NCBI GenBank assembly: GCA_963762145.1 | Contig: CAVXJS010000011.1 | Span: 800,001-864,000 of the forward strand | Length of the DNA stretch: 64,000 nt | DNA from: an uncultured Candidatus Rokubacteria bacterium | Lineage (GTDB): Bacteria; Methylomirabilota; Methylomirabilia; Rokubacteriales; CSP1-6 | Direction: 5' to 3' | Shown: in pieces, positions 1-34,108 of the stretch | Numbering within the stretch: position 1 is the stretch's first letter | How the letters are laid out: every line of letters starts with the position of its first letter | Notes under the pieces: generated by a model | Databases searched by the model: none | What the model was told of the DNA's origin: nothing | What the model saw: only the letters and a program-made list of their open reading frames with translations | Made by a program: the position numbers and the translations under genes

Positions 1-936
1 GTTCTGTCCGAACGCGAACACGAACGTCAGGAGGTAGACCGCGAGGGGCACCACCCAGAGCAACGGCATCGGAGCCACGTCGGTAGTGAGATAGGTGGTG
101 ACTCCCAGCATGAGGCTCGAGGGTAGAAAGGCGAGAAGGACCCAGCGAGCCGGTCGCGCTGCCGCGCTGCCCGCGCCCGGCACGGGCGAGGCGGCTGCAA
201 CGACGGCGGATCCGCCCGTGGCGGGTGCGCCCACCGCGATCGAGGCGGGGAAGCGCGACAAGATGGCGCCGCATCCGAGAAGAAGCCCGGTCAGCAACAG
301 GTACCCGAGGGCCCAGAGACGGCTCTGATCGGTCAGCCGGAGATTGGGCTCGATGAGCGTGGGATATGCCAGAAGCGCGGCGAGGCTCCCCACGTTGGAG
401 GCCGCATACAGGAAGTACGGGTCGCGAGCCAGCGGATGATCGGTGCCGGTGAACCACTTCTGGACGAGTGGGGCGGTCGTCGAGACGACAAGGAACGGCA
501 AGCCCAGGGCGATCACGAGCAGCATGAAGAGCCAGAGGAAGGGGCTTTGCTGCGCCGGTGGGCTCCAGCCCTCCGGGATGGCGACGGGGAGAACGAACAG
601 GGTAACGAGGAGAAGCCCGAGGTGAAGAACCACTTGGCGGCGCAGGCCCAGGGCTGCCGGCGCCACATGCGCGTAACCGTAGCCGATGAGCAGGACCGCC
701 TGGAAGAAGAGCATGCAGGTGTTCCAGACGGCAGGTGTGCCGCCGAGCATCGGTAGCGCCATCCTGGCGAACATGGGTTGCACGGTGAAGAGAAGGGCGG
801 CGGAGAGGAAGACGGTCAGCGAGAACAACGCGGCAGCGACGGCGTGACGCGATGTGCGGGACGGGTGCTTCAGATCCAGCGTCGTGCCGGGCGCTCCCAC
901 GAGGAGGCCAACCGGATGGGAGGACTGTTCGCTCAT
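1..936 (-). CDS. Fused MFS/spermidine synthase-like membrane protein (partial, runs off window start)
   Basis: Not in the ORF track; translated by hand from ATG 936: ...LFSLTVFLSAALLFTVQPMFARMALPMLGGTPAVWNTCMLFFQAVLLIGYGYAH...PSSLMLGVTTYLTTDVAPMPLLWVVPLAVYLLTFVFAF, typical of this family. ATGA overlap with the upstream stop at 933-935. Confidence 0.85.
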   Translation of the reverse strand, partial: MSEQSSHPVGLLVGAPGTTLDLKHPSRTSRHAVAAALFSLTVFLSAALLFTVQPMFARMALPMLGGTPAVWNTCMLFFQAVLLIGYGYAHVAPAALGLRRQVVLHLGLLLVTLFVLPVAIPEGWSPPAQQSPFLWLFMLLVIALGLPFLVVSTTAPLVQKWFTGTDHPLARDPYFLYAASNVGSLAALLAYPTLIEPNLRLTDQSRLWALGYLLLTGLLLGCGAILSRFPASIAVGAPATGGSAVVAAASPVPGAGSAAARPARWVLLAFLPSSLMLGVTTYLTTDVAPMPLLWVVPLAVYLLTFVFAFGQN

Positions 937-2234
937 CGAGATCTCGGCACCAGGACGCCCTCGCGGGAGCCTGGGCTCACCGGCCGGGTCGAACGCTCGT
1001 CCCGAAGATGTGCCGCCAAGCAGTCGAGCATGGTGGCGCCCCAGAGTGCGGTGATGCTCCAGAAGTAGGCGGAGGCGACCAGCGGGGTCGCCCAGGCATG
1101 CGGCTGAAAGAGAAACGTGGCGAAGTGAGGCCAGACAAGTCCCGGTACGGCCAGGATGAGGAGGCGTCGACGCCACCGGGCGGCCCCGGCGTCCGGACGG
1201 TGTTGGTCGCGAGCCATTTCGCGGATCCAGGCGACGCCCAGTGCGGCCATGGGACCGATCGCCAGCCACAGGTAGTAGATCCACCCGAGGGGAGAGATGA
1301 GGAGCGCGGCGAGGAGGAGAATCACGAACGCGCGATCGACCGCCGAGGTGGTCCGGTCGAAGCTCACGGCGCCGAGACTGAGGACGGCAATGAGCGCCAC
1401 GGCGGGAAGCCAGAGTGGGAGGATGAGCTCCGGCGCCATCGCCAGCGGAGCGTAGTAGGGGTTCTCGCCGAGCGATCGGGTGAGGATGCCCAGGACCGAG
1501 GCGTTGGGGCCGCGCCAGGTCCAGGACACCGAGGCCAGTTGTGACAGCCACGACCAGTAGCTACCTGGCCCGACGATGGCAAGGCCGCCAAGGAACCATG
1601 CGCTGGCGGTCGTGCAGGCTACCGCGGCGACTCCCGGGCGGCGGCGCAGCACGAGATAGGGGATGAAGATGAGCAGAAAGAGCTTCAAGCCCATCGCGAG
1701 CCCTAGATAGATTCCGGCCCGTCTCCAACGGTCCCGTCGCGCCGCGGCCCATGCAAGCGTGAGCGGCAGCATGAGGAGAAAGGCAACCTCCGCGGTCCCC
1801 AGCACCGCTCCCGTGCCGGAGAAGGCCAGCAGCCAGACGCCTCCTCGCCAGCAGCTCCGGACGCTCGGCGTGAGGTTGAGCTCACGGACGATCACGGCCA
1901 TGGAGACGCCGAGGCAGAGCAGGTTTGCGGCGGCCCAGAGGGCGAGGGCGGCGCCCGGAGGCAGGAGAGCCAACGGCAGTACGAGGAGCTGGAAGTGCGG
2001 CGGATTGAGGTTGACCAGAGTGCTGCGTAGGGTCCGGCCGAGGTGGGCCTGCAGCTCCGAAGGCAGATCGTACATATCGCGCCCCTCGAGGTGGGCGCGC
2101 GCGGACAGATACAGGATCCGGAAGTCGCCCATCTCAAGCCGGGTCACCATCGTGTGCGCGATCCATCCGTTCCAGGAGATCAGCGCGAGCAGCACCGCAG
2201 CCGCGCCGATCCGCCGCAGGCCCATCCCGGTCAT
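933..2234 (-). CDS. Glycosyltransferase family 87 (DUF2029, GT-C fold membrane glycosyltransferase)
   Basis: GDFRILY..., NLNPPHF, LAMGLKLF and LISPLGWIYY motifs, many TM helices. Start placed at ATG 2234 (ATGA overlap with upstream stop). Confidence 0.8.
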   Translation of the reverse strand: MTGMGLRRIGAAAVLLALISWNGWIAHTMVTRLEMGDFRILYLSARAHLEGRDMYDLPSELQAHLGRTLRSTLVNLNPPHFQLLVLPLALLPPGAALALWAAANLLCLGVSMAVIVRELNLTPSVRSCWRGGVWLLAFSGTGAVLGTAEVAFLLMLPLTLAWAAARRDRWRRAGIYLGLAMGLKLFLLIFIPYLVLRRRPGVAAVACTTASAWFLGGLAIVGPGSYWSWLSQLASVSWTWRGPNASVLGILTRSLGENPYYAPLAMAPELILPLWLPAVALIAVLSLGAVSFDRTTSAVDRAFVILLLAALLISPLGWIYYLWLAIGPMAALGVAWIREMARDQHRPDAGAARWRRRLLILAVPGLVWPHFATFLFQPHAWATPLVASAYFWSITALWGATMLDCLAAHLRDERSTRPVSPGSREGVLVPRSR

Positions 2235-2966
2235 CGAGACCGGAGGATCAGGACGCGCTTGTCGGGGTCCAGGGTGACCGTGAAGCGGCCCAGGAAGGTG
2301 TTGCCAAGGAGCCCGTCGATGCCGGGTCCGATCGAATGGATGACTGCGTCGACGTTCTCCACCTCGGCGTCCCCGACGCGCACGGAGGCAATCGTGACGC
2401 GCCGGCCGGCGGTGACGCCGCCGACCACCTGCATCGGCACCGTCTCCGCGCCCGCGCCCGGGTGGATCTCCAGGGCGGTGGCCAGCTCCGGCGAGAGAAC
2501 GCACGCGCTGGCCCCCGTGTCCACGACGAAGCGCGCGGTGCGTGAGCCGTTCAGGCGGACATCGGCCATCCAGTTGCCGCGGGCGCGGTGGAGGGTCACG
2601 AGGATCTCTTCGGTCCGCGCGCTCCGAGGTGCCGGCTCCCGCAGGAGGGGGGCCAGGGACCGGATGCCCTCTTGCGCGGTGGCCGCCAGGTCGGAGGCGG
2701 GTTCAGGCGGAGGACGGTCTCGAAAGCCGCCGAGGCCTCGCGCCATCTCGAGAGTCGCATGAGGGCAACGCCCCGGTGATAGTGGAGGAGCGGGTCGTGG
2801 GGCGCCTGCGTCACGGCCTTGCCGAACAGGCGTTCGGCCGTGACGTAGTCTCCTCGCTCGTACGCGGCCGTGCCGGCATCGTTAGGTCGGAGATCGGCGC
2901 CAGCGCGCCGGTGGCGCAGACGAGGCCCAGCAGCGCCCCGCAGGACGGCAGCAGCCGTGTGCTCAT
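2231..2966 (-). CDS. Exported TPR + retropepsin-like (clan AA) aspartyl protease, frameshifted
   Basis: Signal-like N-terminus MSTRLLPSCGALLGLVCATGALA; TPR fragment HYHRGVALMRLSRWREASAAFETVLRLNP; FVVDTGAS and GLLGNTFL motifs. Split over ORFs 2811-3410, 2596-2814 and 2231-2746. Confidence 0.75.
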
Positions 2967-4680
2967 GGCAGGTCTGCCTTGCGCTCGACCCAGCTGATCC
3001 CTTCCGGGACCCGGAACTTGGTCACGGCATCGACGCTCTCGCTTCGTCCCGCTGAACCAGTCCTCCTGGTCCCACAGGATCCCCTGAGGCATGAGGACCT
3101 TCGCCACCACCCTCCGCCCGGCGCCGGGCAGCGAGACCGGCTTGAGGGTCCGGGGGGCCAAGTGGTCTTTGTCCGGGAGGTAGAGAGTCGGTCGCATGTC
3201 CCCGAGGGAAGCCGTACCCCGATAGCGGACGATCAGGGTGTAGACGCCAGGCTTCAGGCCCCTGAGGTAGAACATGGCCGATGGCGCGCCGTTGGTGGTC
3301 TCCTCGACGGCCGGCAGCCTCATGGTCTGGACGGGGCGTCGAGGCGCTCGGATGCGCGCGCCAGGTGGCGCTGACCTCCACGGACGGACTCGTCGGTCCC
3401 TGCCGGCCACGGCATGACCAGGACGCCCGACGTAGGGCGGGCGCCGGCCGTCCGGATGGTCACCGTGCCGCTCCGGCGCACTACGTCTCCGCCAGATGCC
3501 TCCGCCGAAGATGCACCAGCGGGTCGGTCAAGAGGACGGATGAGGCGGAACTTCCCGGCGCTCGCGGTGACCGGGATGCGGCGGTCGTTGGCGACGATCC
3601 AGACCGTGGTCAGGCTCTGGTCGTCGACCTGTCCCTCGACGACCGCGACAGGCGGATCGTCCGGGCCAAGGCTGAGCCCGTCGGGCGGGCTCGTGAGCGC
3701 GATGCCACTCGATGAAGGGCGTGCGACGTACTGGACCGTGATCGTGTCCTCGGCCTCCAGCCCGCCCTGGCCGTCACGACCGCACGAGCTCGTTCGCCCC
3801 GGCCGAAGCAGGGCGGCGGTCTCGAAGGTCCGACCGGGTCAGTGGTCACCTCGGCCGGGACCCCGTTGACGTAGACCATGAGCCGCTCGGGCAGGCCTCC
3901 CAGGATCGGCCAGACACCGTCTGGGCGGGATCATCGGCGACCCATGACCTCGGGCCATCCAGTCGTACGAGGGCGCGCTCCCGGTTGAGCCCGAAGGCGG
4001 ATCGAGGTTGGGCTGGCGCCGGCGCGGGAGCGACCGCGACCGGAACGGAAGGCTTCTTGGCAGCCGCACTTTCCCGGAGCTCGACGGCCGTCTGGGGCAG
4101 GTCCGGGACCGAGGTGAGTGTTTTGGCCGGCTGGGCGGTGGGCGGGCTCGCCATGGCCTTGGGAGGAGGCTCCGGCCAGCCCGCGTCGAGCCGCATATCG
4201 ATGCCGAGGTCCGGGGGAGCGGTCACACCAGGCCCGTTCGCGGAAGCCGACACCGCCGACTCGAGCGCCGGCCGTTGCGGGGCGGATCCCGGCGCCTCGA
4301 CGGGTGGCACCGAAGACTGGGCGGCCGGCATTGCCACCAGCTCGCTCCTCGATGCGCCGCGCGCCGGGCCGGCCGACGGCGCGCTCGTCTTCGTGGAGTG
4401 CGCCGCCGCCGCGCGCTCGCCGGCGGCGATCGCCGCGGGGACGAGTGCGGGAGGATCAGGACGGAGTCATCGCGGCCAGATCCATGAGGACCGTGGGGAC
4501 GTCCTCGCCGCCCGGTCTCTCGGGGAGGGCATTCGTGAGGCGGACCAAGCTCATGATGAGCGCGACATGTAGGATCAGGGACGCCAGGAAGGCCAGACCG
4601 ACCATCTCGTCGGGAAGGCGCCGGAGCCCGTGGGCCCGGTTGAACGGCGAATACCGCCGGGAGCGACCGAGCCCCATCAC
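2963..4680 (-). CDS. Membrane-anchored protein: TonB/TolA-like TM anchor, Pro/Ala-rich linker, Ig-like (glucodextranase-B-like) domains; multiple frameshifts
   Basis: LAFLASLILHVALIMSL (S-x3-H anchor); Pro-rich stretch; beta-rich VYVNGVPAEV...TFET..LRPG.NEL and TITVQYV; ends KFRVPEGISWVERKADLP-stop overlapping the next ATG. Confidence 0.5.
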
Positions 4681-4688
4681 TGGGATCG

Positions 4689-5519
4689 CTACTCGCGGGC
4701 CGGTCTGATCTGGAGCGCTTCGACCGGCCTCAGGACTTCGACGGATCTCAAGGATCCCGCCACGATGTCGTCCGCGCGTCCCTCCTGAGGCTCGACCGCA
4801 GACAGGGGCGCAGGCGGGCGGACATCACGGCGCACGGTGGACTGGCCGAGGGCGGAGGAAGAGGAAGGGGTCGGCTTCGGGGGCGAGATAGCGGCCGCTG
4901 GCACGGTCGCGACGCCGGCGGAAGTCGGGACGACGAAGATAGGGGTCGAGGTCACGGTCGCCACCGGGTGGGACTCGGGCCTTGGCGGCGCGGGTGAAGC
5001 GTCGCGTGCCTGCTCGATCCGCGTGCCAAGTCGCTCGATCTCCCGGTGCAGACGGCGGAGGTCCTCGCTCCCCGCGTCCGGCCCGGGCGCGGCCCTCTCG
5101 CGCGCGCTCGCGCCCGTGAATCGCGCGAGCGAGGCCGCGATCTGGTTGAGGAACTCCTCGCTGGTCTGCTTGTCGGCGAACAACCCTCCCGCCTCGACCC
5201 GGACGGATACCTTGGTCATGCTGGTGGTGACACGCTCGAGCGTCCCGTGGACCGTCACCGCTTCCCCGGTGCCGCTGAGGCGCCATTTGGCTCCTGCCTT
5301 CTCCGTTTGATCGAGGCGGACCGCCATCCGGGCCAGGCATCCGATGTGGCGCCCCACGTGGTCTCGAGGTCCGCCGGCAGGGTGCGGTCAACGCTCCGGT
5401 CCACGATGGCCGTGACGGAGCTGGCCAGGGGGCCCATGAGGGCCAGCCCGGCCGTCGCGCACCCTCCGGCCGTCAACCCGCCGAGCCATGAGCACGAGAA
5501 GCGAGAGCAGTGAGCGCAC
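4689..5519 (-). CDS. DUF3568-like lipoprotein with low-complexity C-tail, frameshifted
   Basis: Hydrophobic signal then LTAGGC lipobox; RTLPADLETTWGATSDA / LARMAV...TKVSVRVEAGGLFADKQTSEEFLNQIAASL resembles DUF3568. Start approximate. Confidence 0.55.
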
Positions 5520-5531
5520 GATGCGTCGCCT

Positions 5532-6738
5532 TTACCTCACCAGCTTGAGCTTCGCGGTCGCGGTGATGGGTCCCGGGGTGGGAGCCGGAGGCGCCGGATT
5601 GTACTGGCAATCGTAGTACCCAAAGATCCCCTTCTGACCGGCCCAGCCCGGCGGGAGCGACGTGGCGGTGCCATTCTTGCTTGCGAAGCAGTGGGCATCC
5701 CACGGATTGCCGGCCCAGTGATTGGCCACTGCGCAGTTCCCGTTGCTGTTGAGGATCTGGGTGATGACGAAGCGCGTCCACCCCACGATCTGCAGGCTCC
5801 CGTTGACGGCCCCCGGTGGGCAGCTCCCGCCGGTGTCGATCACCGGCACGTGAACCTCCCAGCCGTGCCCGCTGTAGGCCGTCGATCCGTCCTGATTGAG
5901 CACGGTGATGTCCGGAGGAGAGCTGCTGTAGATCTGCGGGAACTCGGTCATCAGATAGTTGATGATGCTGTTCATCTCGCCGTTGCTCGCCGGGACCGAG
6001 TCCCCCTGGTTGAGTGCGGTCCCGTTGCACGACTCCGTTGACCGCAGCCTCCACCTGCGACGTGGCGGCCGAGATTGTTGATGTTCGTCGCGCCGGGATC
6101 CAGGTTCACCCACGCGGCCGAGTTCGCGCCAACCGCGGACGAGTCACTGCTGCTGATGAAGCTGACGGTGGCGCCGCAGCCCAGCGAGGTCGGGCCTCCG
6201 AAGAAGCACGAGCTGAGCGCCTACCGGGAAAACGCAGGCGTTCGGCGGGGTCGTGGCCGGCTGGGCGGCCCAGGCGATGGCCATGGCTCCGCTGTTGAGG
6301 CTGTTGACGCCGATCAGCCGGAGGAAGGACGTCGGCACCGCCGTCGCGAACCGGCACTGGACCGCGTTGACCTTCGTGCCGTCGAGCGACGGCGCGAAGG
6401 TGCTGCCGTTCCAGATCCCGAGGACGATGTTCCCGCCGGGCGCATTGGCGGTGTTCAGATTGAGATTCACGGTGCCGGTCCGGTACGGATTCAGCAACGC
6501 ATAGTCGCGGGCCCATTGACGCGCGGCCGGGAAGAAGGTATCGTTGAAGCCGAGCTTGCCGGCGCCGGCGAGTGCGGCCGCGTCCATCGTGACGCTGCAG
6601 CTCGTCGTCCACCGCGCCGTAGTAGGCCAGGTCCATGGCGAGGCCGCCGATGATGATCATAAGCGGCACGACGAGGATCGTGGTGAAGAGCAGGATGCTC
6701 CCGCGTTGGTCTCTTGCCCAGCGACGCATCTTGTCCAT
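5532..6738 (-). CDS. TadG-like minor pilin/tip protein with Cys-containing C-terminal domain, frameshifted
   Basis: DQRG|SILLFTTILVVPLMIIIGGLAMDLAY...ELQ..DAAALAGA (Tad N-terminal motif); continues in ORFs 6144-6587 and 5532-6113, ending KLVR. Confidence 0.75.
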
Positions 6739-6758
6739 GGCGGCTCCCTTGTGTGCCG

Positions 6759-7380
6759 TTACCGGGTGAAGCTGGAGGACTTCGATGTCCTGCCAGGGGA
6801 TATCCGACGCGCCCGTCCACAGAGGCGCCGCGGATGATGGCCGAGCCCAGATTGACGTAGTCGGCGGCGATGCGACCGCCGTCGGCCAGGGCGATGTCGG
6901 CCCCGTAGCGGACGTGGGTCGCCGCCACGTAGGGAGGCAGGGAGCTGTCAAGCACCGGCTGGCGCTTGAACGTGATGCTGGAGATGCTGCCGAGCGGGAT
7001 CTGGGTGGCCACGCCGCCGCGATAGGCCGTGATCTCCTGGGCCTGGCGGTGCCCCTGGATGGTGTCCGGGCTGTCCTTGCCGAAGAACCGGTTCAGCGTC
7101 GCCACCGAGGGGTCGGCCGACTCGCGGCTGAGACCTCCTCCCAGCGTCAAGCTGGTGAAGTTGGTGGCTTGCCCGCCTCACTCCCGGTCTCGCCGCCCCC
7201 CTCCCGCGGCCTGGAGACGATCGAGTAGAAGACCTCGAGAGAGGGCTGCGAGAGGCGCCAGGACTGGCCAGCCCAGGTCTTCACGTCGGCGGTCGTCTCC
7301 TGCGCGGATGCCGGCAGCGAGAAGGTGGCGATGGCGATCCAGAGGAGCGCCAGGGTCGTGATCAGCGCGCGTCGGTTCAT
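6759..7380 (-). CDS. Secreted hypothetical protein, frameshifted
   Basis: Signal peptide MNRRALITTLALLWIAIATFSLPASA; continues in ORF 6491-7150; probable stop TAA at 6759-6761. Confidence 0.5.
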
Positions 7381-7396
7381 GTGTCGGTCTCCATTG

Positions 7397-8344
7397 TCAG
7401 TTTTTACCGAGGGTCTTGAGCAGCTTCAGGAGCCCCAGCAGTGAGGGCGCCATCGTGACGAGGAAGAAGGAGGGCATGAGGAAGAACACGGTCGGGAGCA
7501 GCATCTTGAGCGGGGCGAGGTGCGCCCGCTCTTCGGCGCGGTGCCGGCGCTGCACGCGCGCGGAATCGGCGTGGACCCGTAGGGTCTTGCCGAGCGGCGT
7601 CCCGAGCTTCTCGGTCTGGACGAAGGCGGTGACCATCGCCTTGATCTCGTCGGTCCCGGTTCGCTGCCCGAACGCCCGGAGGGCCTCGGTGCGGGGGCGG
7701 CCCGCCCTGATCTCGAGGTGCATCCGGAGCATCTCCTGGTGCAGCGGGTTGTGGCGGCCTTCGGGCTGCTCCGCCACCCGGGCCACTGCCGCGTCGAGGC
7801 CCATCCCGGCCTCGACGCAGACCATCAGCATATCGAGCACGTCCGGCAGCGTATGGACGATCTCCCGCTTGCGGGCCTTGATCCGGTTGTGGACCCAGAA
7901 GTCGGGGAGGAAGAACCCGATGACGGCCAGGATCACGGAGATCGCCATCAGGCGCTGGCTGGGGACGACTCTGAGGAGGAGTGCCGTGTAGAGGAAGTAT
8001 CCGACGCCGGCCAGGGCCGCGAGCCCCACCTTGGCGCCGACGAACAGGAGCACGGCCCGCGGCTCGTGGTAGCCCGCCCAGATCAGGCGCTGCCGGTACT
8101 TCGTCGGCGCGGTCTCCGGCGAGCCCGCCACCGCGCGGCCGATGCGCTCGGCGGTGCGCTCCCAGGCCGCGGCCGGCTCGCCCGTCCAGCGCAAGATCGA
8201 GGTCGGCCCGCTGCTCGGGGCCGAACCGGTCCTGAGCCGCTCGCGCTGCACGGCCGGCCACCACCGGAGCAGCATCATTCCGGCCAGGAACGTGATCCCG
8301 GCCACCATGAGGAACGAGAGGATGACGACGGTGATGGGGTTCAT
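7397..8344 (-). CDS. tadC: Tad pilus inner-membrane platform protein TadC (T2SS F family)
   Basis: LPDVLDMLMVCVEAGMGLDAA...QTEKLGTPLGKTLRVHAD...AEERA..APLKML. Confidence 0.92.
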   Translation of the reverse strand: MNPITVVILSFLMVAGITFLAGMMLLRWWPAVQRERLRTGSAPSSGPTSILRWTGEPAAAWERTAERIGRAVAGSPETAPTKYRQRLIWAGYHEPRAVLLFVGAKVGLAALAGVGYFLYTALLLRVVPSQRLMAISVILAVIGFFLPDFWVHNRIKARKREIVHTLPDVLDMLMVCVEAGMGLDAAVARVAEQPEGRHNPLHQEMLRMHLEIRAGRPRTEALRAFGQRTGTDEIKAMVTAFVQTEKLGTPLGKTLRVHADSARVQRRHRAEERAHLAPLKMLLPTVFFLMPSFFLVTMAPSLLGLLKLLKTLGKN

Positions 8345-8351
8345 GGGCGCC

Positions 8352-9296
8352 TCATACCTTGATCTGGGCGATCCGCCAGACCATGAAGAATCCGATCGCC
8401 TCGAGGACCAGCCCGGCGCCCACGAGCAAGGGGCCGATCGGATCGGTCGTCAGCGCGGTGAAATAACCCGGGTGCATGAGCTCGAAAAGGATCGCGAAGA
8501 GCGCGGGACTCAGCCCGACGCAGACTGCCGACCAGCGGTGCTGGGACGAGAGCACGCGCGCATAGCTCAGGATCTTGAATCGCTCGCGGATCACCTCGGC
8601 GAGCCGCTCGAGCACCTCGGCCAGATTGCCCCCGACCCCGCGCTGGATCCGAATGGCGGTGCAGAAGAAACCGATGTCCTCCACCGGGACGCGCGTCTGG
8701 AGCCGGAAGAGAGCCTCGCCCGGATCCATCCCGAGGCGGATCTCCTCGTCCACGCGGCGGAACTCCGCTCCGACCGGATCGGGCATGTCCTCGCCGACGA
8801 CCCGGATGGCACCCGACAGGGCGTTGCCCGCCCGGATCGCTCGCGTGATCGTGTCGAGAGCATCCGGGAACTGGTTCTGGAACGCGTTGAGGCGCCGCCG
8901 CCGTAGGTACATCAGGTACACGATCGGAAGGGAGCCGAAGGTGAAACCTGCGATGAGCCCCCAGAACAACGCCCCGGTCCGGAGCCAGCCACCGGCCCCC
9001 CCGATGACCACGAAGGCCGCGATGATCAGCACGACATCGCCGGTCGTTCCCTTGTAGGCCGATTGCGTGACGAGGGCAGCCAGCCGCTTCATCAGACCGG
9101 TGCCGCCCAGCATGTCGCCGAGGGCCCCGTCGATGCGCTCGACGTCGGACCGGAGGATTCCCGTCGGGCCGTCCGCGGGGCCGGGCCGCTTGAGGCGGGC
9201 CCTCACGGCCCGCTCGGCCTGCGCGACCCACCACAGGCCGACGACCAGGACGACGATGGCGAGGAAGATGAGGCCCGCGATCGTCAGGGCCATCAT
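8352..9296 (-). CDS. tadB: Tad pilus inner-membrane platform protein TadB
   Basis: [19 protein letters not shown]...[23 protein letters not shown]. Confidence 0.92.
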
Positions 9297-10678
9297 CGCG
9301 CCGCCTCCCGGCGGCCCGGGTCGAAGACCTCCGGTCCGAGGTGGATGCCGGCCCGCTCGAGCCGCTCTGAGAACTTCGGGCGGATGCCGGTCGCCCGGAA
9401 GAAGCCGTGCACTCGCCCGTCCGCGTCGATGCCCTGCTGTTCGAACACGAAGATGTCCTGCGTCGTGACCACGTCCTCCTCCATGCCGACCACCTCCGTC
9501 ACCCGCGTCACCTTGCGGGTGCCGTCCGAGAGCCGGGCCAGGTGGACAATCAGGTCGAGCGCGGACGCGATGTAGTCGCGCATGGCCCGCACCGGAAGGG
9601 ATATCCCGGACATGAGGACCATGGTCTCGAGCCGGGAGAGCGCGTCACGGGGGGAGTTGGCATGAACGGTCGAAAGCGAGCCGTCGTGGCCGGTATTCAT
9701 GGCCTGGAGCATGTCCAGGACCTCGGGACCGCGCACCTCGCCGACCACGATGCGGTCGGGCCTCATCCGGAGAGCGTTCCGCAAGAGATCGCGCTGGGTC
9801 ACCGCGCCCTGGCCCTCGATGTTGGGCGGCCGCGTCTCGACCCGGACCACGTGCTCCTGCTGGAGCTGCAGCTCGGCCGAGTCTTCGATGGTCACGATGC
9901 GCTCGGTATTCGGGATCGCGTTCGAGAGCACGTTCAGTATCGTGGTCTTGCCGGCACCGGTGCCGCCCGACACGAGGATGTTGAGCCGGGCCTGCACGGC
10001 GGCCCGGAGGATCTCGGCCAGACCGGAGGGGAGCGTCCCGAACTCGACCATGTCACTCATCCGGTAGGGATCGGCCGCGAAGCGCCGGATGGACAGCACA
10101 GGGCCATCGAGGGCCAGGGGCGGGATCACCGCGTTCACGCGCGATCCGTCGGGCAGACGGGCGTCGACCATCGGGGAGGATTCGTCCACGCGCCGGCCGA
10201 CTGCGGAGACGATGCGCTCGATCACCTGCAAGAGATGGGCATCGTCCCGGAAGATCACCCGCGTGCGCTCGAGCTTGCCACGGCGCTCGATGTAGACCTC
10301 CTTGGATCCGTTGACGAGAATGTCCGAGACGGTCGGGTCCTGCATCAGGGGCTCGAGCGGACCCAGCCCGAATGTCTCGTGCTCGACCTCGAGGGCCAGC
10401 TGCTCGCGCTCCTGCCGGCTGAGAGGCGTGTCGTCGCCCGCGAGCATGTCCTCAACGATGCGGCGGATCTGCTGCTGGACCGCCTCGAGCGGGAGGATGT
10501 CCAGCTTGGCGAGATCGAGGCGCTCGATGAGCTGGCGGTGGATCCGGGTCTTGAGATCGTAGTAGGCGTCCCGGCCGCGGCTAGGGGTGTCGAGGGCACT
10601 GTGACCGTTGCTCGCGGCGGGGGAAACCGGGACCGGCTCCTCCTGGCGCGCCACCGTCCTCCGTTGGAAGAGTCCCAT
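9293..10678 (-). CDS. cpaF: Tad pilus assembly ATPase CpaF/TadA
   Basis: Walker [11 protein letters not shown]; [10 protein letters not shown]; [14 protein letters not shown]; AMNTGHDGS. Confidence 0.96.
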
Positions 10679-11896
10679 CTATCCGTCTCCTAGGATGCTT
10701 TTGGGGTTCCAGGCAAGGCGCATGAAGGACGAGGACCGCACCGCGCCCGACCGAGAGGGTACGGCGGGGCGGTAGAGCCCGGCCGCCAGCTCGCGCAGAT
10801 TCTTGGCGATCTTGGAGCGGGCCGCCGCGGTGACGACCGGCTGACCGCCGTTGATGGCGGAGACCACGGTGGAGTAGTCGCTGGGGGTCCGCCAGTAGAC
10901 GGGCGCGCCGAGGACCTCCTGGGCGTGCTTGAGGGTCACGTCCTCCCCGGTCCCGTCCCGCATGACGACGATCTTGACTCGCTGGAGGTTGAGCCCGAGA
11001 TGGCGAAGGGCCACGAGGCCGGCCGAGCTCGACCGGAGGGCGGATACGGTCAGGCTGGTGAGATAGAGAATGGTGTCGGAGGCCTCCAGCGCCGCGATGG
11101 TGCCTGGATCGAAGTCGTGCCGGAGGTCGAGCACCACGTGACCGAAGTGGGATCGGATGATCTGGAGAGCCGCCTGGACCCGGTCGCCGGAGAGCTGGCT
11201 GCGCTCGATGCGGGTCGGGCCGGGGAGCACCATGAGCCCACTGGCGTGCTTGACGAGGAGTCCCTGGAGCAGGGAGTCGTCGAGGCGCTCGAGGCTCTCG
11301 AGCGCATCGAGCACCGAGTACGTGTAGCGGAGATTGAGAAAGGTTGCGACGTCGGACTGGCGGGTGTCGAGATCGATCAGGATGGCGCCGTCGGGCGCGC
11401 GCTCGGCGAGGCACACCGCCAGGTTCGTGGCGAGGGTCGTGACACCGAGCCCACCCTTCGTGGAGAAGACCGAGGTGATCCGCCCCGCCCGCGCGGCTGG
11501 CTGGCTGCCCCGGCGAAGGCGGAGGAGCTTCTCGAGCGCGGCGGCCAGATCGGCTCGCTGCACCGGGCGGCGCAGGAACTCCATCGCCCCGGCCCGGATC
11601 GCCTCGATCACGAAGTCGGCGGAAACGTCGGCACCGGTGGCGAAGACCGCGGCGTCGGGGAAGGCGCGCGTCAAGGCGCCCACCACGTTTGCCGGGGAGC
11701 CGTCCGCCGTCTCGTGCGCGACGAGGTCGACGATCACCAGGTCGGGCTTCCGGCTTGGTCCCTCGTGGAGGGCCGGCGAGAGGCGTCCGAACTCGCCCAC
11801 GACCTGCACGGTGGCGATCGCCCCGAGTAGCCGCTTCAGGAGCGCGGTGGACTCGGTGTCGCCACCGACGATGAGGATCCGGAGTGTCGCGGTCAT
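10679..11896 (-). CDS. cpaE: CpaE/TadZ pilus localisation protein (receiver-like + ParA/MinD-like)
   Basis: N-terminal receiver-like domain, deviant Walker A STKGGLGVTTLATNLA, position within the tad operon. Confidence 0.88.
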   Translation of the reverse strand: MTATLRILIVGGDTESTALLKRLLGAIATVQVVGEFGRLSPALHEGPSRKPDLVIVDLVAHETADGSPANVVGALTRAFPDAAVFATGADVSADFVIEAIRAGAMEFLRRPVQRADLAAALEKLLRLRRGSQPAARAGRITSVFSTKGGLGVTTLATNLAVCLAERAPDGAILIDLDTRQSDVATFLNLRYTYSVLDALESLERLDDSLLQGLLVKHASGLMVLPGPTRIERSQLSGDRVQAALQIIRSHFGHVVLDLRHDFDPGTIAALEASDTILYLTSLTVSALRSSSAGLVALRHLGLNLQRVKIVVMRDGTGEDVTLKHAQEVLGAPVYWRTPSDYSTVVSAINGGQPVVTAAARSKIAKNLRELAAGLYRPAVPSRSGAVRSSSFMRLAWNPKSILGDG

Positions 11897-11909
11897 CTCG
11901 ATCCCTCGC

Positions 11910-13349
11910 TCATCGGGTCGGCAGATTGCTCTGACCGAACGGGCGCGTCACGACGTCACCCACTCCGGGGATGCCCGGGACGAGCGTGAAGTCCTTCTTC
12001 TCGTCTTCACGGAGGTCCAGGAGCCGCCGGGCGTCAACCCCGGAGCCCGGGGCGTCGGGCTTCACGAGCTTTGCGGTGACGAGGAAGAGCAGCTCGGTCT
12101 CGTTGTTCTGGAAGCGCGTGCTGCGGAAGAGGGCACCCAGGATCGGGATGTCCCCGAGGATCGGGATCTTAGCCACCGCCTGGCGCACCTCGTTGTTGAT
12201 CAGCCCGGCGATCGCGAAGGACTCGCCGTCCTTCACGTTGATCGTGGTGGCGGCCTCGTTCTTCCGGATGACCGGGATATTGAACCCGGCCGAGACCAGG
12301 CCCTGGCTGAAGTCCAGGCTGGAGACCTCCGGCCGGATCTTGAGGTTGATGTTCTCCCCGTCCTGGACCACCGGCAGGAACACGAGCCCCACGCCGAACT
12401 CCTTGAACTGGACGGTGATCGTGTTGTTGTCCTGGGAAATCGGGTAGGGGAACTCGCCCCCCGAGAGGAACTTGGCTTCCTTCCCACTCTGCGTTACCAG
12501 GTTGGGCTTGGCCAGCGTGCGAAGGACGTTGCGGTCGGCTAGCGCGCGCACCACTCCGGCATAGTCACGACTGCCGGAGGAGAGGAAGATGTTGCTGCCC
12601 GCGAGTCCGAAGTCGGGCGAGGTCTGGCCGAAGAGGCCGTTGGCCACCACGGGGCCGACGGCGCCGAGCATCAAGCTGAACGGGTTGCCGGGGGTGGCGG
12701 CGCCCTGGAACGTCTGCCCGAGCGCCCGGGCACTGAACCCGAGCTCCTTCAGGGCCGCGCGGGCGATCTCGGCCACGTGGACCTGGAGCATCACCTGCTG
12801 AGGCTTGACGTCGGTCAGGCTGAGGAGGCTCACCACCTTGCCCTTGGGGGCAAAGACCGAGGCGACCTCGACGACGCCGGCGATCGTGCGCTCGCTCGAG
12901 ACGCTGCCCTCGAGGATGATGGCGTCCTGCGCCGGGTGGATCTGGATGTCGTCGCGGGGAGCAACCTGCTTGATCCGTTCCCGGAGCAGGGCCAGGTCGC
13001 TCTGCACGACCAGGTCGAAGAAGACGGTCTTCGTTGGGTAGAATGCCACGAGCGACGTCGTGCCGACCGCCTTGCCGTTGATGAGGATCTGGCTGGGCGT
13101 GACCACGAAGACGTCCGCGATGGCCGGGTTCGTGACCGAGACCCGGGTGAACGCCTCCTGGAGGTTCAGCACCTGCGACTTGCCGATGGTCACGTCGAGC
13201 CGGATGAGCCCGGGCTCGGCGGCGAAGGCTGGGAGCTGAGCTCCCGCGAAGAGCAGCAGCGTGGCGGCGAGCAGCGAGACCGCAACGCGGGCTCCTGGGC
13301 GATGGTGTCGTGGCATTGCGCGCATATCCCCCATGTCTGGCGATCTCAC
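11910..13349 (-). CDS. cpaC: CpaC/RcpA secretin
   Basis: Signal peptide; NPAIADV N-domain; QVMLQVHVAE; FLSGGEFPYP; KIPILGDIPILGALFRS; ETELLFLVT. Confidence 0.93.
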   Translation of the reverse strand: MRSPDMGDMRAMPRHHRPGARVAVSLLAATLLLFAGAQLPAFAAEPGLIRLDVTIGKSQVLNLQEAFTRVSVTNPAIADVFVVTPSQILINGKAVGTTSLVAFYPTKTVFFDLVVQSDLALLRERIKQVAPRDDIQIHPAQDAIILEGSVSSERTIAGVVEVASVFAPKGKVVSLLSLTDVKPQQVMLQVHVAEIARAALKELGFSARALGQTFQGAATPGNPFSLMLGAVGPVVANGLFGQTSPDFGLAGSNIFLSSGSRDYAGVVRALADRNVLRTLAKPNLVTQSGKEAKFLSGGEFPYPISQDNNTITVQFKEFGVGLVFLPVVQDGENINLKIRPEVSSLDFSQGLVSAGFNIPVIRKNEAATTINVKDGESFAIAGLINNEVRQAVAKIPILGDIPILGALFRSTRFQNNETELLFLVTAKLVKPDAPGSGVDARRLLDLREDEKKDFTLVPGIPGVGDVVTRPFGQSNLPTR

Positions 13350-13819
13350 TTCTTAGCGGGCTCGGAAACGTCGGGCTTGATCTGGCCTAGCTCCTGCCAG
13401 CGCTGGTCCTTGTCTCGGGCAAAGAGCTGCTCGGTCATGCTGCCACCGCGCTGCACCAGCACCGAGTGGGGCGGCTCCACCCCGCTCGGCGCGGTGACCG
13501 TGCCCACCGGCGACGGATGCACGACCAGGTCGAACTGCCGCGCCGACTTGCCGGAGAAGATGACCAGCGAGGTGATCCCGGGAGTTTTCCCGACGACCAG
13601 GAGCTGGGTCGGGCTGATCACCTGGACGTCGGCAATGTTCGGATTGGCGACCGCGACCTTGCGGGCCGGATCACCGATCTCAAGCACGTGCGACCGATCC
13701 ATGCCCAGGTACAACCGACTGAGTGACTGTGACTGCGCCGCGGATGACCCCGGGGTCACGGCTGCCGCCGCGAGGCCCATGAGCGCGTAGCCGGCGAGGC
13801 GAGCGAGGTGCGGTCGCAT
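13346..13819 (-). CDS. Stand-alone pilus-formation N-terminal domain protein
   Basis: Signal peptide + VAVANPNIADVQVISPTQLLVVGKTPGITSL, paralogous to the N-domain of the adjacent secretin. Confidence 0.8.
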   Translation of the reverse strand: MRPHLARLAGYALMGLAAAAVTPGSSAAQSQSLSRLYLGMDRSHVLEIGDPARKVAVANPNIADVQVISPTQLLVVGKTPGITSLVIFSGKSARQFDLVVHPSPVGTVTAPSGVEPPHSVLVQRGGSMTEQLFARDKDQRWQELGQIKPDVSEPAKK

Positions 13820-14709
13820 CAGCGGTCTCCTCTGGGCGCCTGTTGCTCGCTCCAGGCGTGGTCGCGATCGCGGACGAAGACCTGCTCACTCACCTTCGTT
13901 CCCCGGATGACCGCCACCGGATGCTTCTCGATGGACGGCAGCGGGAGCGGCGCGCTACGGGCCACGACCGCCTTCGCGGTGGGCTGCGGAGCGGCCGAGG
14001 GCAGGTCGGAGAGCAGGGAGGTCGGGGTCGCACCCGGCGTCCTGACCACGTCGGTGTCCCGGAGGTTCCGCTGCACGAGCATGAGCTTCCCTTCCGCCTG
14101 CGCTACCGCAAGACGCTCGGTTTGCTGTGGGGTCAGCGCCAAGGTCACGGTCGTGTTGGTCACGGGCTTGTTGTCCTTCATCTCGACGGTCTGGCCGGCG
14201 GCCAGGACCGTGACGTCCTGCAGGATCACCTTGGCGATCTTCTCGTTCGCGCCGGGCGCCTTGGGCATGCTCACCAGCACGTCCACCCGGCTGTTGGGCA
14301 GCACGAAGCCGCTGTCGCGGGTGGCGTCGTCGAGCTTGATGGTCACCCCGCGCTGGCCCTCGGGCACCAGCATGGGCATGATGCCGCCCTTCCCGGAGAG
14401 CTGCGGGGCGAGCTTGGCCTCCATCAGCGGCTCCCCGGCCACGATGGATCCGCGCACCACGCGCCCTTCGGCGTCCGCGAGATTCCGGACCGCGCCCGGA
14501 GGGACCGAGGCCTTGGGCCAGGGGACGAGCTTCACGTGCTGACCGGTGATGGTCTCCGCGAGGCCGATGTTGGCCGCCGCCACCACGATGCGGTCGGACT
14601 GGTCGTCACTGGCCCGGGCCACCTGGCTCACCACGCGGTAGACGAGAAGGCTCGCGAGGAGGCCGATGAGAGAGGCGCACACCACAATCAGCAGCAATCG
14701 CCGACGCAT
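13819..14709 (-). CDS. cpaB: Flp pilus assembly protein CpaB/RcpC
   Basis: N-terminal TM, SAF domain, GFVLPNSRVDVLV, TVTLALTPQQTERL; start at MRRRLLLIV (ATG 14709, GGAAGG upstream). Confidence 0.92.
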   Translation of the reverse strand: MRRRLLLIVVCASLIGLLASLLVYRVVSQVARASDDQSDRIVVAAANIGLAETITGQHVKLVPWPKASVPPGAVRNLADAEGRVVRGSIVAGEPLMEAKLAPQLSGKGGIMPMLVPEGQRGVTIKLDDATRDSGFVLPNSRVDVLVSMPKAPGANEKIAKVILQDVTVLAAGQTVEMKDNKPVTNTTVTLALTPQQTERLAVAQAEGKLMLVQRNLRDTDVVRTPGATPTSLLSDLPSAAPQPTAKAVVARSAPLPLPSIEKHPVAVIRGTKVSEQVFVRDRDHAWSEQQAPRGDR

Positions 14710-14726
14710 AGTCGTGTCCTGCCTTC

Positions 14727-15161
14727 CTATTCGCGCCGCATTCTGACCGTCTCCTGAAGTACCAGGGGGCTGCCCGGGGTACCCAGGATCGGCAGGAAGA
14801 GCGGAACGACGGTTTCGAAATTGATGGTCACAGTCGCCTGCACCTGAGAGTCGGGCGGGCAGGCGGTCGCGGAGCACGTCACCGACACGCTGGCCGCGGT
14901 GAGGTTCGCCGCGCTCAGCACTTCGCTGATGCGCGTCAGGGCCGGGCCGTTGTCGAATGTGGGGCTACTCGGGTTCGGCGGCGGCGTCACCACTCCCACG
15001 CGCGCCCCTTCTCGGGCGGCGTTGGTGGCGATATTGGATGCCAGCCATGCTCGACTCAGCTCGAGAGACGCGAGGAAGATGAACAGCAGCGTCGGCAGGA
15101 CCACGAGGAACTCGAGGGTGGAGGTGCCTCGCTGATTGCGCAACCGTCTTATGAGTGTCAT
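14727..15161 (-). CDS. tadE: TadE-family pseudopilin
   Basis: NQRG|TSTLEFLVVLPTLL...AAREGAR. Confidence 0.9.
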   Translation of the reverse strand: MTLIRRLRNQRGTSTLEFLVVLPTLLFIFLASLELSRAWLASNIATNAAREGARVGVVTPPPNPSSPTFDNGPALTRISEVLSAANLTAASVSVTCSATACPPDSQVQATVTINFETVVPLFLPILGTPGSPLVLQETVRMRRE

Positions 15162-15181
15162 GGTCTTTGGCCTTGTGCCAG

Positions 15182-15209
15182 CTTCCGGGGCCCGTTTGGG
15201 CCCCGGAAG
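15182..15209. other. 12-bp GC hairpin between flp and tadE (probable mRNA-stabilising or attenuating stem-loop)
   Basis: CTTCCGGGGCCC-GTTT-GGGCCCCGGAAG perfect inverted repeat just after the flp stop; no U-tract on the coding strand. Confidence 0.6.
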
Positions 15210-15222
15210 TCGGCGTGGTGTC

Positions 15223-15399
15223 CTACGTGACGATACCGGTCAGCTTGGTGGTGATGTCGGCGATGACTGCGTCGATACCGCCCTTGAGGGTGCCGGGATA
15301 GACGGCCGCCGCCAGCATCACGATCAGCGCGCCCACCGCGATCCACTCGAGCGTCTCGACGCCACGCTCGTCCTTCAGGTATCCGAGAATCCTCTTCAT
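15223..15399 (-). CDS. flp: Flp family (type IVc) major pilin
   Basis: MKRILGYLKDERG|VETLEWIAVGALIVMLAAAV; 58 aa; AGGAG-like RBS; lies at the head of the tad genes. Confidence 0.85.
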   Translation of the reverse strand: MKRILGYLKDERGVETLEWIAVGALIVMLAAAVYPGTLKGGIDAVIADITTKLTGIVT

Positions 15400-15508
15400 T
15401 GCCTGTCTCTCTCCTGTGCTCACCGCCCGTTCCGGGCGTGAGGCCTAGAAGTTCACTGCACCTGACTCCTGCTCTCCTACGCCGACTGGTGGCTCGCCCT
15501 CACCCCCT

Positions 15509-16084: not shown

Positions 16085-16284
16085 ATCACTATCTCCGCGC
16101 GAATACCTTGCGCGGGAATTGGTGGGAGGCAAGACCCTCGGCCGTTAGCCAAATTGGGATAAATGTTTCCCTCTGCGTCGGGCACGCAATTCGTGCCGGT
16201 TGCTACTTCGAGCTAAAACGCCCGCTTCGACTCGGATTGCACTCAGAATTCCGGGTTGGCATCGGTCATGCGATTCCGTGCGCA

Positions 16285-17766
16285 ATGGCCATGGAATCGG
16301 TGCCGCTCGACTCGAGCAAACCGCTGGCGGCGGCCGACTCGGCGCCGGATCTGGGTGTCTTAGGTCGGAAGCCGAGCGAGCACGTCCTTCGACACGAGAT
16401 GCTGGCCGCCATGGTGGAGGGAGCCCGTGAGGGTTTGTGCATCATGGACCCCCGGTCGGTTTTGCTTCATAGCAACCAGGTGGCCGGGGAACTCCTGGGG
16501 TTCGATCCGAAGGAGGCGGCGGGCCGGTCGGTTCGCGATCTCGGTGAGGAGCGCGACTTCGACTGGTCCCTGGTCGGAGACGTGGTGACGGGCCGCGTCG
16601 CGGTATCCACCATACAGACCCTCCGAACGGGCCGGAAGCTGCTGGTCTCCGGAGTTCCCATCTGGTCAGACGATGGGGAGCTCTCCTTCATCGTCGTGAC
16701 GATTCGCGAGATCACCGGGATGGGCCGGGTGATGAGCCGGCTGCGCGACGCGGTCGAACTCGTGGAACAGTCTCGCTCCACGCTGGCCATCATCCCGGCC
16801 CGCGAGCTGCAGCTCGATGACATCGTCGCTCAGAGCCCGACGCTGGCAGAGGTGCGGGGGACCGCGCTCCAGTATGCCGCCGTGGACTCGACGATACTGC
16901 TGCTCGGCGAGACGGGCGCCGGCAAGGGGATGTTTTCGCGGCTGATCCACCAGGCCTCGCCGCGCGCGGCGGGGCCATTTCTCGAGGTGAACTGCGGGGC
17001 GATCCCTGAGGGGTTGATGGAGGCTGAGCTGTTCGGGTACGCCAAGGGTGCCTTCACCGGCGCGGATCCCAGGGGCAAGATTGGGCTGGTCGAGCTCGCG
17101 CACAAGGGCACGCTGCTGCTCAACGAGATCGGCGACCTGCCACTAGGACTGCAGGTCAAGCTATTGCGCTTCTTGGAGGACGGCGAGGTCTGGGCGGTCG
17201 GCGCGGTCAAGCCGAAGCGCCCAGACGTGCGGATCATTGCCTCGACCAACCGGGATCTATCTGGGATGATCGCCGCGGGGACGTTCCGCGGGGATCTCTT
17301 CTATCGGCTCAACGTCCTGTGTCTCGAGATTCCGCCTCTGCGCAAGCACGCCGAGGACATTCCGGGCCTGGTGGAGCTGACGCTCTCGCGGCTCGAGCGA
17401 AGGCTCAAGCGGCGCCGGACCATCACGCCCGCGGCGCTGCGTCGGCTCTCACTTCATCCCTTTCCCGGCAATGTGCGGGAGCTGCTAAACCTGGTGGAGC
17501 GGCTCATGGTGACCAGTACCCGCGATCCGATCGACATCGGAGACTTGCCAGAGGCGCTGCTGAGCGGACTGGATGAGACGCCGGGTTCGCTCCCGGACAG
17601 CGTGCCGACGTTGCGAAAGGCGCTCCAGAAGGTGGAGAGTCAGATCTTGAGGGATGCATTGGCACGCTACCAGACGCAGGCTCTCGCCGCGAAGCACCTG
17701 GGTATCACCCAGTCCACCGTGGCCCGCAAGGCCAAGCGGTATGGCCTCGAGAGCCGCGTCTCGTGA
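16285..17766 (+). CDS. PAS-domain sigma54-dependent transcriptional activator (bEBP, TyrR-type HTH)
   Basis: PAS domain; GETGAGK; ELFGYAKGAFTGA; LQVKLLRFLE; FPGNVREL; C-terminal AAKHLGITQSTVARK. Start ATG 16285 or 16291. Confidence 0.92.
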   Translation: MAMESVPLDSSKPLAAADSAPDLGVLGRKPSEHVLRHEMLAAMVEGAREGLCIMDPRSVLLHSNQVAGELLGFDPKEAAGRSVRDLGEERDFDWSLVGDVVTGRVAVSTIQTLRTGRKLLVSGVPIWSDDGELSFIVVTIREITGMGRVMSRLRDAVELVEQSRSTLAIIPARELQLDDIVAQSPTLAEVRGTALQYAAVDSTILLLGETGAGKGMFSRLIHQASPRAAGPFLEVNCGAIPEGLMEAELFGYAKGAFTGADPRGKIGLVELAHKGTLLLNEIGDLPLGLQVKLLRFLEDGEVWAVGAVKPKRPDVRIIASTNRDLSGMIAAGTFRGDLFYRLNVLCLEIPPLRKHAEDIPGLVELTLSRLERRLKRRRTITPAALRRLSLHPFPGNVRELLNLVERLMVTSTRDPIDIGDLPEALLSGLDETPGSLPDSVPTLRKALQKVESQILRDALARYQTQALAAKHLGITQSTVARKAKRYGLESRVS

Positions 17767-33931: not shown

Positions 33932-33936
33932 CTCTA

Positions 33937-33971
33937 CCCTCTCCCCTCTGGGGAGAGGGCAGGGTGAGGGG
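33937..33971. repeat. BoxC-like REP-type hairpin
   Basis: CCCTCTCCCC-TCT-GGGGAGAGGG-CAGGGTGAGGGG, right after the SDR stop. Confidence 0.7.
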
Positions 33972-34072: not shown

Positions 34073-34108
34073 ATGGCGGACAACCGTTCCGAATTCGGGG
34101 GCGGGCGC

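Follow-up and report, generated by a model that had tools for sequence, protein, structure and literature searches.

What do the genes that follow tadC in a pilus locus of an uncultured Candidatus Rokubacteria bacterium do, and do they belong with the pilus? The locus opens the window, i.e., the 64,000-nucleotide stretch of DNA analysed here (G000:C11:800001-864000), which comes from an assembly of 6.26 Mb in 25 contigs, 88% complete, 5.4% contaminated and with a G+C content of ~70%. The genes after tadC (hereafter, the tail) consist of a conserved core followed by a variable enzyme slot, the latter being located between a protease gene and a convergent tadV gene. The reading favoured here, with a probability of roughly 0.6, is that this is a Tad/Flp locus with a lineage-specific 3' extension made up of those two parts, that the broken reading frames of the tail are assembly errors, and that the slot enzymes would act on products of the locus itself.

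Gene identities were obtained through three approaches: (i) a Pfam scan of the open reading frames (ORFs) of the window; (ii) NCBIfam searches with selected proteins; and (iii) for the broken genes, tblastn with the proteins of the same-genus reference genome G020 (locus L013), in which the tail genes are intact single ORFs. Judged by Pfam, the Tad set is complete and the locus is a Tad/Flp (type IVc) pilus locus (Table 1). An earlier note, made from the letters of the window, had described a same-strand run after tadC and tadG that continued through a DUF3568-like lipoprotein, a TonB-like-anchored protein with an immunoglobulin-like (Ig) domain, an exported protease with tetratricopeptide repeats (TPR), a GT87 glycosyltransferase and a fusion of a major facilitator superfamily (MFS) protein with a spermidine synthase (SpdS). 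This order, all on the minus strand, is the one found with Pfam, NCBIfam and the G020 orthologues, and the three ATGA overlaps that it placed at 933-936, 2231-2234 and 2963-2966 can be read directly in the sequence.

The core order after tadC is gene A, TadG, (DUF3568 lipoprotein), TonB-like protein and TPR-retropepsin. It follows tadC in G020, in the same-genus-like locus L048 and in 12 of 40 further loci of the family that were found with a protease profile. The arrangement A-TadG-(lipoprotein)-large protein also follows tadC in two genomes from other families of the order, G039 and G028. The protease census was taken without G232 (unpublished) and G240 (the weakest full-length match); two unpublished genomes, not used further, are counted in the tally of the protease profile (152 of 159 genomes).

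What comes after the protease differs from one locus to another. The slot is (i) empty in 10 loci; (ii) occupied by m554, a protein of 554 amino acids (aa), in G020 and G159; (iii) occupied by GT87 in five loci of the sister genus g32; (iv) occupied by MFS/SpdS alone, directly after the protease, in L048 (70.6% identity); (v) occupied by GT87 and MFS/SpdS, i.e., the arrangement of the window, with single-frame genes, in L157-L160; (vi) occupied by GT87 and m554 in L161-L165 and L170; and (vii) occupied by GT87 alone, before tadV, in L190. The junction coordinates coincide in L157 (5825/5825, 7123/7123), L158 (156/156, 1454/1454) and L160 (10001/10001, 11299/11299); the last of these spans CpaC to MFS/SpdS and continues with the convergent tadV, the lipoprotein gene and m580, a gene for a 580-aa protein. 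In the genome under study, tadV is convergent with the operon. A lipoprotein gene comes before it, and 30 bp separate the end of tadV from the stop codon of MFS/SpdS; therefore, the tail and its slot genes are bracketed between the tad operon and tadV. The same convergent pair of tadV and lipoprotein genes closes the locus in G020, L048, L117-L119, L122, L158, L160, L163, L165, L170 and L190. In G169, MFS/SpdS lies just beyond the convergent lipoprotein gene.

The earlier note regarded the tail as a coupled module, to be abandoned if relatives showed no linkage of the tail genes to tad loci. A search of 40 relatives, the other 20 same-genus genomes among them, found no GT87, which suggested such a lack of linkage; this was overturned by wider searches of the phylum and of metagenomes. 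Eight of 251 phylum genomes carry GT87, five of them in g32 (~50% identity), and in all five g32 loci it stands directly after the TPR-retropepsin at the end of the Tad operon. The g32 order (5/5) is large protein, 305-aa alpha-toroid protein, DUF362 protein, TPR-protease and GT87, then the convergent lipoprotein gene and m554, with Tad core genes upstream wherever the stretch reaches. Among metagenome contigs, 56 loci with a GT87 relative were recovered; all 13 with at least 60% identity have Tad-tail neighbours, and they comprise four with GT87 and MFS/SpdS, six with GT87 and m554, one with GT87 alone and two ending at the contig edge. In two distant loci, L188 and L193 (GT87 37-39%, CpaF 60%), the GT87 genes also lie ~4.5 kb downstream of tadC. 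MFS/SpdS was found in none of eight g32 genomes at E<=1e-20. Linkage of the tail genes to Tad loci is thus supported; as a fixed module, the tail does not stand, since behind the conserved core its enzyme slot is variable or empty among relatives.

Two extra genes beside the TPR-protease were observed in L121-L126, L129 and L028-L031 (g32 and others): one encodes a 305-aa protein with alpha-toroid repeats of the prenyltransferase/squalene-cyclase type, the other a DUF362 protein of 332 aa whose signal is twin-arginine-like. In metagenome contigs L171, L175, L176 and L200, DUF362 is paired with GT87 in the absence of the protease. In L014 (G039), the tail ends with a 197-aa membrane methyltransferase of the PEMT/ICMT type (L014:7559-8152) instead of the protease and GT-C genes.

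As for the core proteins, 12 homologues of gene A align with 19 invariant columns, and no Pfam or NCBIfam family matched it. The DUF3568, TPR and TIGR02281 identities proposed from the window were borne out on the intact G020 orthologues: the 245-aa protease passes TIGR02281 (61.9 bits against 57.95) and has TPR_2, and its motifs DTGAS and LLG are invariant in four sequences. In PMC4140852, a DTGA active-site motif together with a hydrophobic-hydrophobic-Gly motif defines retropepsin-like enzymes. The remaining 28 of the 40 loci mentioned above (L128 and L130-L156, family f1) hold a TPR-retropepsin paralogue, 36-43% identical, with no Tad or tail gene within 10 kb.

The TonB-like-anchored Ig protein of the earlier note is retained in part. 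Its N-terminal anchor helix bears S-x3-H in 13 of 16 homologues, and it is followed by a proline-rich spacer (a linker of ~240 aa with 58-65% P/A/S/T in G020) and by a beta-rich C-terminal region. On the other hand, no TonB family, and hence no TonB C-terminal domain, appeared in Pfam scans at E<=0.05; the C-terminus gave a weak Glucodextran_B match below the cut-off, and its nearest named Atlas clusters are Glucodextran_B/DUF2135, which can be taken as a lead only. The locus has no exbBD genes, and two MotA_ExbB matches lie elsewhere in the genome.

The GT87 enzyme passes Pfam with 90.5 bits against a cut-off of 25, in agreement with its first identification, and the PF09594 match covers profile positions 2-237 of 237. 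All 11 aligned homologues keep Asp37-Phe38 of the first extracytoplasmic loop, and we take Asp37 to be the counterpart of the catalytic Asp of PimE. The GT87 profile weakly matched Protein Data Bank (PDB) entry 9dm5, 'Mannosyltransferase' (E 0.0094), and phmmer with GT87 against the PDB gave nothing useful. Regarding m554, with 1508 homologues at E<=1e-10 and an invariant N-terminal A-D-P-D motif, there was no Pfam or NCBIfam match, and a sequence search of the PDB gave chance-level matches alone. Its AlphaFold2 (AF2) model (predicted local distance difference test, pLDDT, 90.4; predicted template modelling score, pTM, 0.90) was compared with the PDB by Foldseek, and 24 of 24 matches at E<=0.001 were GT-C enzymes, the top one being STT3 (E 2.1e-6, TMq 0.60); STT3, DPY19, AftA, PglB, AglB, ArnT and ALG12 are among them, and an Atlas lead agrees. 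As modelled, m554 is an unannotated family with a GT-C fold, STT3/PglB/ArnT-like.

From these identities we infer, along the lines of the glycosylation, S-adenosylmethionine (SAM)-dependent transfer and proteolysis proposed in the earlier note, that the slot enzymes would modify the pilus or an envelope protein of the same locus. They may act at the membrane or its periplasmic face on products of the locus, the most plausible targets being the Flp pilin, whose C-terminus bears Ser/Thr, or the proline/alanine/serine/threonine (PAST)-rich spacer of the TonB-like protein. Polyprenyl-phosphate donors would supply the sugars that GT87 and m554 transfer, the SpdS-fold domain would be a SAM methyltransferase acting on an amine, and one of the exported proteins would be processed by the retropepsin. 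TadV-type peptidases are not known to carry the methyltransferase domain of PilD. A wider proposal, considered rather unlikely, is that the tail serves the Tad pilus as its own system of post-translational modification, with parts that can be exchanged: (i) GT-C glycosylation, by GT87 and the STT3-like family, of the Flp pilin or of the PAST-rich spacer; (ii) N-methylation of a locus product, i.e., the function missing in the short TadV; (iii) maturation of one of the components by the retropepsin; and (iv) a TonB-like, possibly energised, accessory. The swapping of slot enzymes would then diversify the pilus surface under pressure from phages or predators, as in the type IVa pilin glycosylation of Pseudomonas. 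In PMC6182317, the Flp1 pilin of Aggregatibacter is reported to be glycosylated and to bear phosphorylcholine.

Several observations weigh against the favoured reading. In many loci the Tad tail stops at the protease and the slot is empty, and therefore the slot enzymes are dispensable for the machine. GT87, m554 and MFS/SpdS come from large families in which the other members lack a Tad link: 43 metagenome GT87 relatives are below 50% identity and most of them lack tad genes (most of these contigs are short); the best MFS/SpdS matches in the 251 phylum genomes (50-55%), eleven of them in family f4, show no neighbouring tad, GT87 or protease gene out to 1.5 kb; and a paralogue of MFS/SpdS on C9 has no tad context. 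The same is true of the 28-locus group of TPR-retropepsin paralogues. Besides, the Caulobacter Tad pilus structure is described in PMC10710030 without density for modifications. Finally, 29 frame-breaking indels fall in ~4.5 kb of the tail as compared to ~13 frame switches in the neighbouring 80 kb, i.e., a density 20-30 times higher, which fits local decay as well as local misassembly.

A first alternative is that the slot enzymes are ordinary envelope-glycan or lipid enzymes without a pilus role, the 3' end of the Tad operon being a permissive spot for insertion and recombination at which such genes are gained and lost. Occupancy of the slot is patchy even within one genus, the three families are mostly unlinked to Tad, and just past tadV there are further GT-C-like genes, namely m580 and, on the opposite strand, one that is PMT_2/GT87-like, as in a general cluster. 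Nevertheless, the overlap of start and stop codons with the protease gene upstream persists in several diverged copies, the slot genes are enclosed by the tad operon on one side and tadV on the other, and the distant GT87 relatives of L188 and L193 occupy a similar place downstream of tadC. This alternative is considered unlikely, and the reading of the slot as part of a Tad extension is preferred.

A second alternative concerns the reading frames. The earlier note treated the tail as whole genes and missed that five of them, at 2.7-7.4 kb, are broken here: gene A, TadG, the lipoprotein, the TonB-like protein and the TPR-retropepsin (2694-7165) are each split over two to three reading frames, and co-translation through the tail is therefore not to be assumed for this genome. 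By tblastn with the G020 proteins, the frame switches are two in A, one in TadG, one in the lipoprotein, five in the large protein and one in the protease (total, 10). Reading by eye gives ~14 switches, ~4 beyond tblastn (TadG ~3, lipoprotein 1-2, protease 2, large protein at least 5); the two of the protease fall in its N-terminal third and leave the protease domain itself intact. The G+C content at third codon positions (GC3), followed by phase, and stop-to-stop reading likewise indicate repeated frame changes over 2.7-7.4 kb.

It could thus be proposed that the tail, from A through the TPR-retropepsin, is truly pseudogenised, as a decaying accessory of the Tad locus, and that the intact GT87 and MFS/SpdS serve another function. 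A MAFFT alignment of the DNA with G020, from 7165 to 2694, has 29 indels whose length is not a multiple of three, compared with none in tadB/tadC (gaps of 3, 3 and 6 bases) and none apparent in GT87 or MFS/SpdS; their contexts are not long homopolymers. The locus is moreover accessory in the genus, as only G020 among 20 same-genus genomes matched it by DNA, and it may be an accessory, possibly transferred, island. Yet, GC3 periodicity is kept in every frame piece, and the damage extends past the tail: over ~90 kb of synteny with G020, 10 of 52 usable non-tail genes are likewise broken into different frames in G000 (in one case at 98% identity), which makes assembly error likelier. (The 52 are what is left of 66 G020 ORFs after setting aside 14: four with no match, three antisense shadow ORFs, two tail genes and five non-syntenic or low-coverage ones.) A hidden Markov model (HMM) of GC3 phase switches counted 14 in the stretch 2501-7500, just in the top tenth of the genome (median 6, 90th percentile 13, maximum 32), although this model is noisy and tells only that other parts of the genome behave in the same way. 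Furthermore, two other few-contig assemblies, G199 and G201, have splits in TadG, TadC, the protease or m554, whereas in many-contig, short-read-like assemblies (G197, G194, G195) and in metagenome contigs the tail genes are intact. Real decay is accordingly regarded as unlikely; the frameshifts are most likely consensus or assembly errors and not biology, as the favoured reading holds. In practical terms, the G000 assembly carries frameshifts and its gene calls need checking against relatives. A close relative does exist: P0121, a 16-kb contig, has an MFS/SpdS that is 97% identical.

Other frameshifted genes were noticed in the window at 20203-21583, 31641-32668, 33694-35072, 37065-38069, 38178-38841, 39245-39641 and 57191-58631, with a clustering of breaks at 31.6-39.6 kb, and three more lie past the window end (C11:877370-882563).

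The activity of the MFS/SpdS fusion bears on what the slot could add. The fusion announced by the earlier note passes NF037959 (51.3 bits against a cut-off of 40). In Foldseek searches with its AF2 model (pLDDT 81.8), the C-terminal domain resembles spermidine synthases (TMt 0.50-0.58) and the membrane domain resembles MFS transporters (TMt 0.44-0.58). In the motif GxG(D/E)G, the acidic residue binds the amino group of decarboxylated SAM (dcSAM); the 13 homologues examined have GLG(T/A)G at this place and the protein of the window has GLGTG; in an alignment of 30 sequences, G579, L580, G581 and G583 are invariant and position 582 is variable. In the D-x4-D acidic pair, which we take to resemble the amine site of SpeE, D649 is invariant and D654 nearly so. 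A phmmer search of the PDB with the C-terminal domain found no solved SpeE. In PMC10349129, the same substitution in GxG(D/E)G was the ground on which a membrane-bound protein annotated as SpdS was identified as a protein N-methyltransferase. An SpdS-like domain without the acidic dcSAM residue points to a methyltransferase, and the motif hence favours methyl rather than aminopropyl transfer. That the fusion is instead a true polyamine enzyme-transporter, which makes an aminopropylated polyamine and exports it for use at the cell surface or in the matrix, would agree with NF037959, with the two fold matches and with the conserved D-x4-D pair, but it is very improbable given the Thr or Ala in place of the acidic residue and the outcome of the phmmer search.

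When compared with described systems, the locus shares with the Tad loci of Aggregatibacter, Caulobacter and Pseudomonas a putative Flp-type prepilin, TadE/TadG, RcpC, secretin, TadZ, CpaF, TadB, TadC and a short A24 peptidase. It differs from them in the extra conserved genes after tadC (A, DUF3568 lipoprotein, TonB-like protein and TPR-retropepsin), in the variable slot, in that no separate TadD-like TPR lipoprotein was seen here, and in the receiver domain carried by CpaE. The earlier note did not recognise the tail from described Tad loci; literature searches of listings and abstracts, with subscription journals outside their scope, gave no paper on the extra core genes or the slot, and no description of GT87, an MFS/SpdS fusion, a TPR-retropepsin or a GT-C protein of the STT3 type in a Tad locus.

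Individual components have relatives of better-known function. Mycobacterial GT87 mannosyltransferases of the PimE type have in common with the present enzyme the Pfam GT87 family, the weak 9dm5 match and the invariant first-loop Asp; here, in contrast, the organism is of the diderm type (it has a secretin), the gene belongs to a pilus operon, and its neighbourhood showed no genes of a lipoglycan pathway. The TonB anchor has an SHLS motif. The large tail protein resembles TonB in its N-terminal S-x3-H anchor helix and long proline-rich spacer and departs from it in having a beta-rich, beta-sandwich-like C-terminus instead of the TonB C-terminal domain, with no exbBD in the locus. The Caulobacter protease PerP acts on the pilus-biogenesis factor PodJ. 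Rickettsia APRc, PerP and TIGR02281 proteins share with the Tad-tail protease the DTGA and hydrophobic-hydrophobic-Gly motifs; the latter has, in addition, an N-terminal signal/anchor and two TPR repeats, and its gene is placed at the end of a Tad operon. In PMC4140852, APRc is said to process surface proteins and PerP is cited as a retroviral-type protease.

The closest functional analogy is that of tfpO/tfpW beside pilA (type IVa) in Pseudomonas aeruginosa, where strain-variable membrane glycosyltransferases or oligosaccharyltransferases are encoded next to pilus genes. TfpW has been discussed as GT-C-like and pilin glycosylation as a guard against pilus-specific phages (bioRxiv 10.1101/2020.04.19.049825, 10.1101/150227). 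In the present case, however, the pilus is of class IVc and not IVa, the enzymes are at the far end of the assembly operon and not by the pilin gene, and the families are GT87, STT3-like and MFS/SpdS. Similarly, the fungal enzyme NHMT, described in PMC10349129 as a seven-transmembrane (7-TM) protein that N-methylates secreted lytic polysaccharide monooxygenases (LPMOs), is a membrane-integral SpdS-fold protein with the acidic residue of GxG(D/E)G replaced; the protein reported here is bacterial, and its MFS-like membrane domain has ~14 helices, not seven.

Tad pili are widespread organelles of adhesion and colonisation, and little is known about the modification of Flp pilins. If the favoured reading is true, an operon-encoded variable enzyme slot would provide a genetic handle on the modification of type IVc pili. 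It would also give two large families that are still uncharacterised, i.e., the 554-aa GT-C-fold family and the fused MFS/SpdS proteins, their first clue from gene context. In turn, the TonB-like anchored protein raises the possibility that the Tad machine has an energised accessory.

Table 1. Features of the Tad locus and its tail, with positions in the window unless a C11 coordinate is given.
Feature	Position	Strand	Basis
Putative Flp-type prepilin, 66 aa	15223..15423	-	ORF and ...DERG/VETLEW... processing motif (slash, processing site) read by eye; G020 orthologue 64% identity
TadE-like pseudopilin	14727..15161	-	Pfam TadE, E 2.2e-12
CpaB/RcpC	13819..14877 (longest ORF)	-	Pfam RcpC, E 5.2e-25; SAF
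Small protein with secretin N-terminal pilus-formation domain	13346..13819	-	Pfam T2SS-T3SS_pil_N, E 1.6e-17
CpaC/RcpA secretin	11910..13349	-	Pfam Secretin, E 6.5e-45
CpaE/TadZ-like ParA-type ATPase, N-terminal receiver domain	10679..11896	-	Pfam Response_reg, AAA_31/ParA
CpaF/TadA ATPase	9293..10678	-	Pfam T2SSE, E 5.5e-74; 90% identical to G020
TadB platform protein	8352..9296	-	Pfam T2SSF
TadC platform protein	7397..8344	-	Pfam T2SSF, E 1.7e-19
Gene A, secreted protein of ~200 aa	6757..7380	-	tblastn with G020 orthologue (203 aa), frames -2/-1/-2
TadG-like protein	5532..6738	-	Pfam Tad_C on 6144-6587; intact 399-aa G020 orthologue has Tad and Tad_C
DUF3568 lipoprotein	4689..5525	-	G020 orthologue (274 aa) DUF3568, E 2.7e-8
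TonB-like inner-membrane-anchored large protein	2963..4677	-	G020 orthologue ~634 aa; tblastn frames
TPR and retropepsin-like (clan AA, DTGA) protease	2231..2966	-	Pfam Asp_protease_2 on 2231-2746, E 9.7e-23
GT87-family GT-C glycosyltransferase, intact ORF, 433 aa	933..2234	-	Pfam GT87, E 1.9e-25
MFS/SpdS-fold fusion, first 312 of 772 codons	1..936	-	Whole gene C11:798618-800936, past window start
tadV/cpaA prepilin peptidase	~C11:798057-798588	+	Peptidase_A24, 68.2 bits, at C11:798178-798486

Concerning the Tad genes proper, the Flp ORF had no match to Pfam Flp_Fap, either in a six-frame search or by hmmscan of ORF 15223-15423. The true start of CpaB/RcpC is probably near 14709, where the alignment with the G020 orthologue begins. 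Beyond tadV, two polytopic membrane proteins (G000:C11:793899-796861) are kept in G020, L048, L117 and L160. One of them is the 580-aa m580, with a weak WsfD-like match; the other, on the opposite strand, matches PMT_2/GT87, so that GT-C-like genes form a cluster there; Pfam gave no family for m580 or for the plus-strand lipoprotein.

On the other side of the locus, at 16108-17766 (+) of the window, there is a divergent 552-aa ORF with a GAFTGA-type sigma-54 activator sequence and a C-terminal helix-turn-helix, which could regulate the tad operon. A search for sigma-54 promoters (TGGCAC-N5-TTGC, at most one mismatch) found 0 sites in the whole window versus 2.8 expected by chance, and this lead was dropped. 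A consensus scan for promoters and terminators was uninformative: terminator-like sites numbered seven versus 4.1 +/- 2.1 in shuffles, none of them in the intergenic gaps of the tail. Over the whole locus (window 1-15423), GC3 is ~0.80-0.90 as against ~0.94-0.97 at the C9 locus examined.

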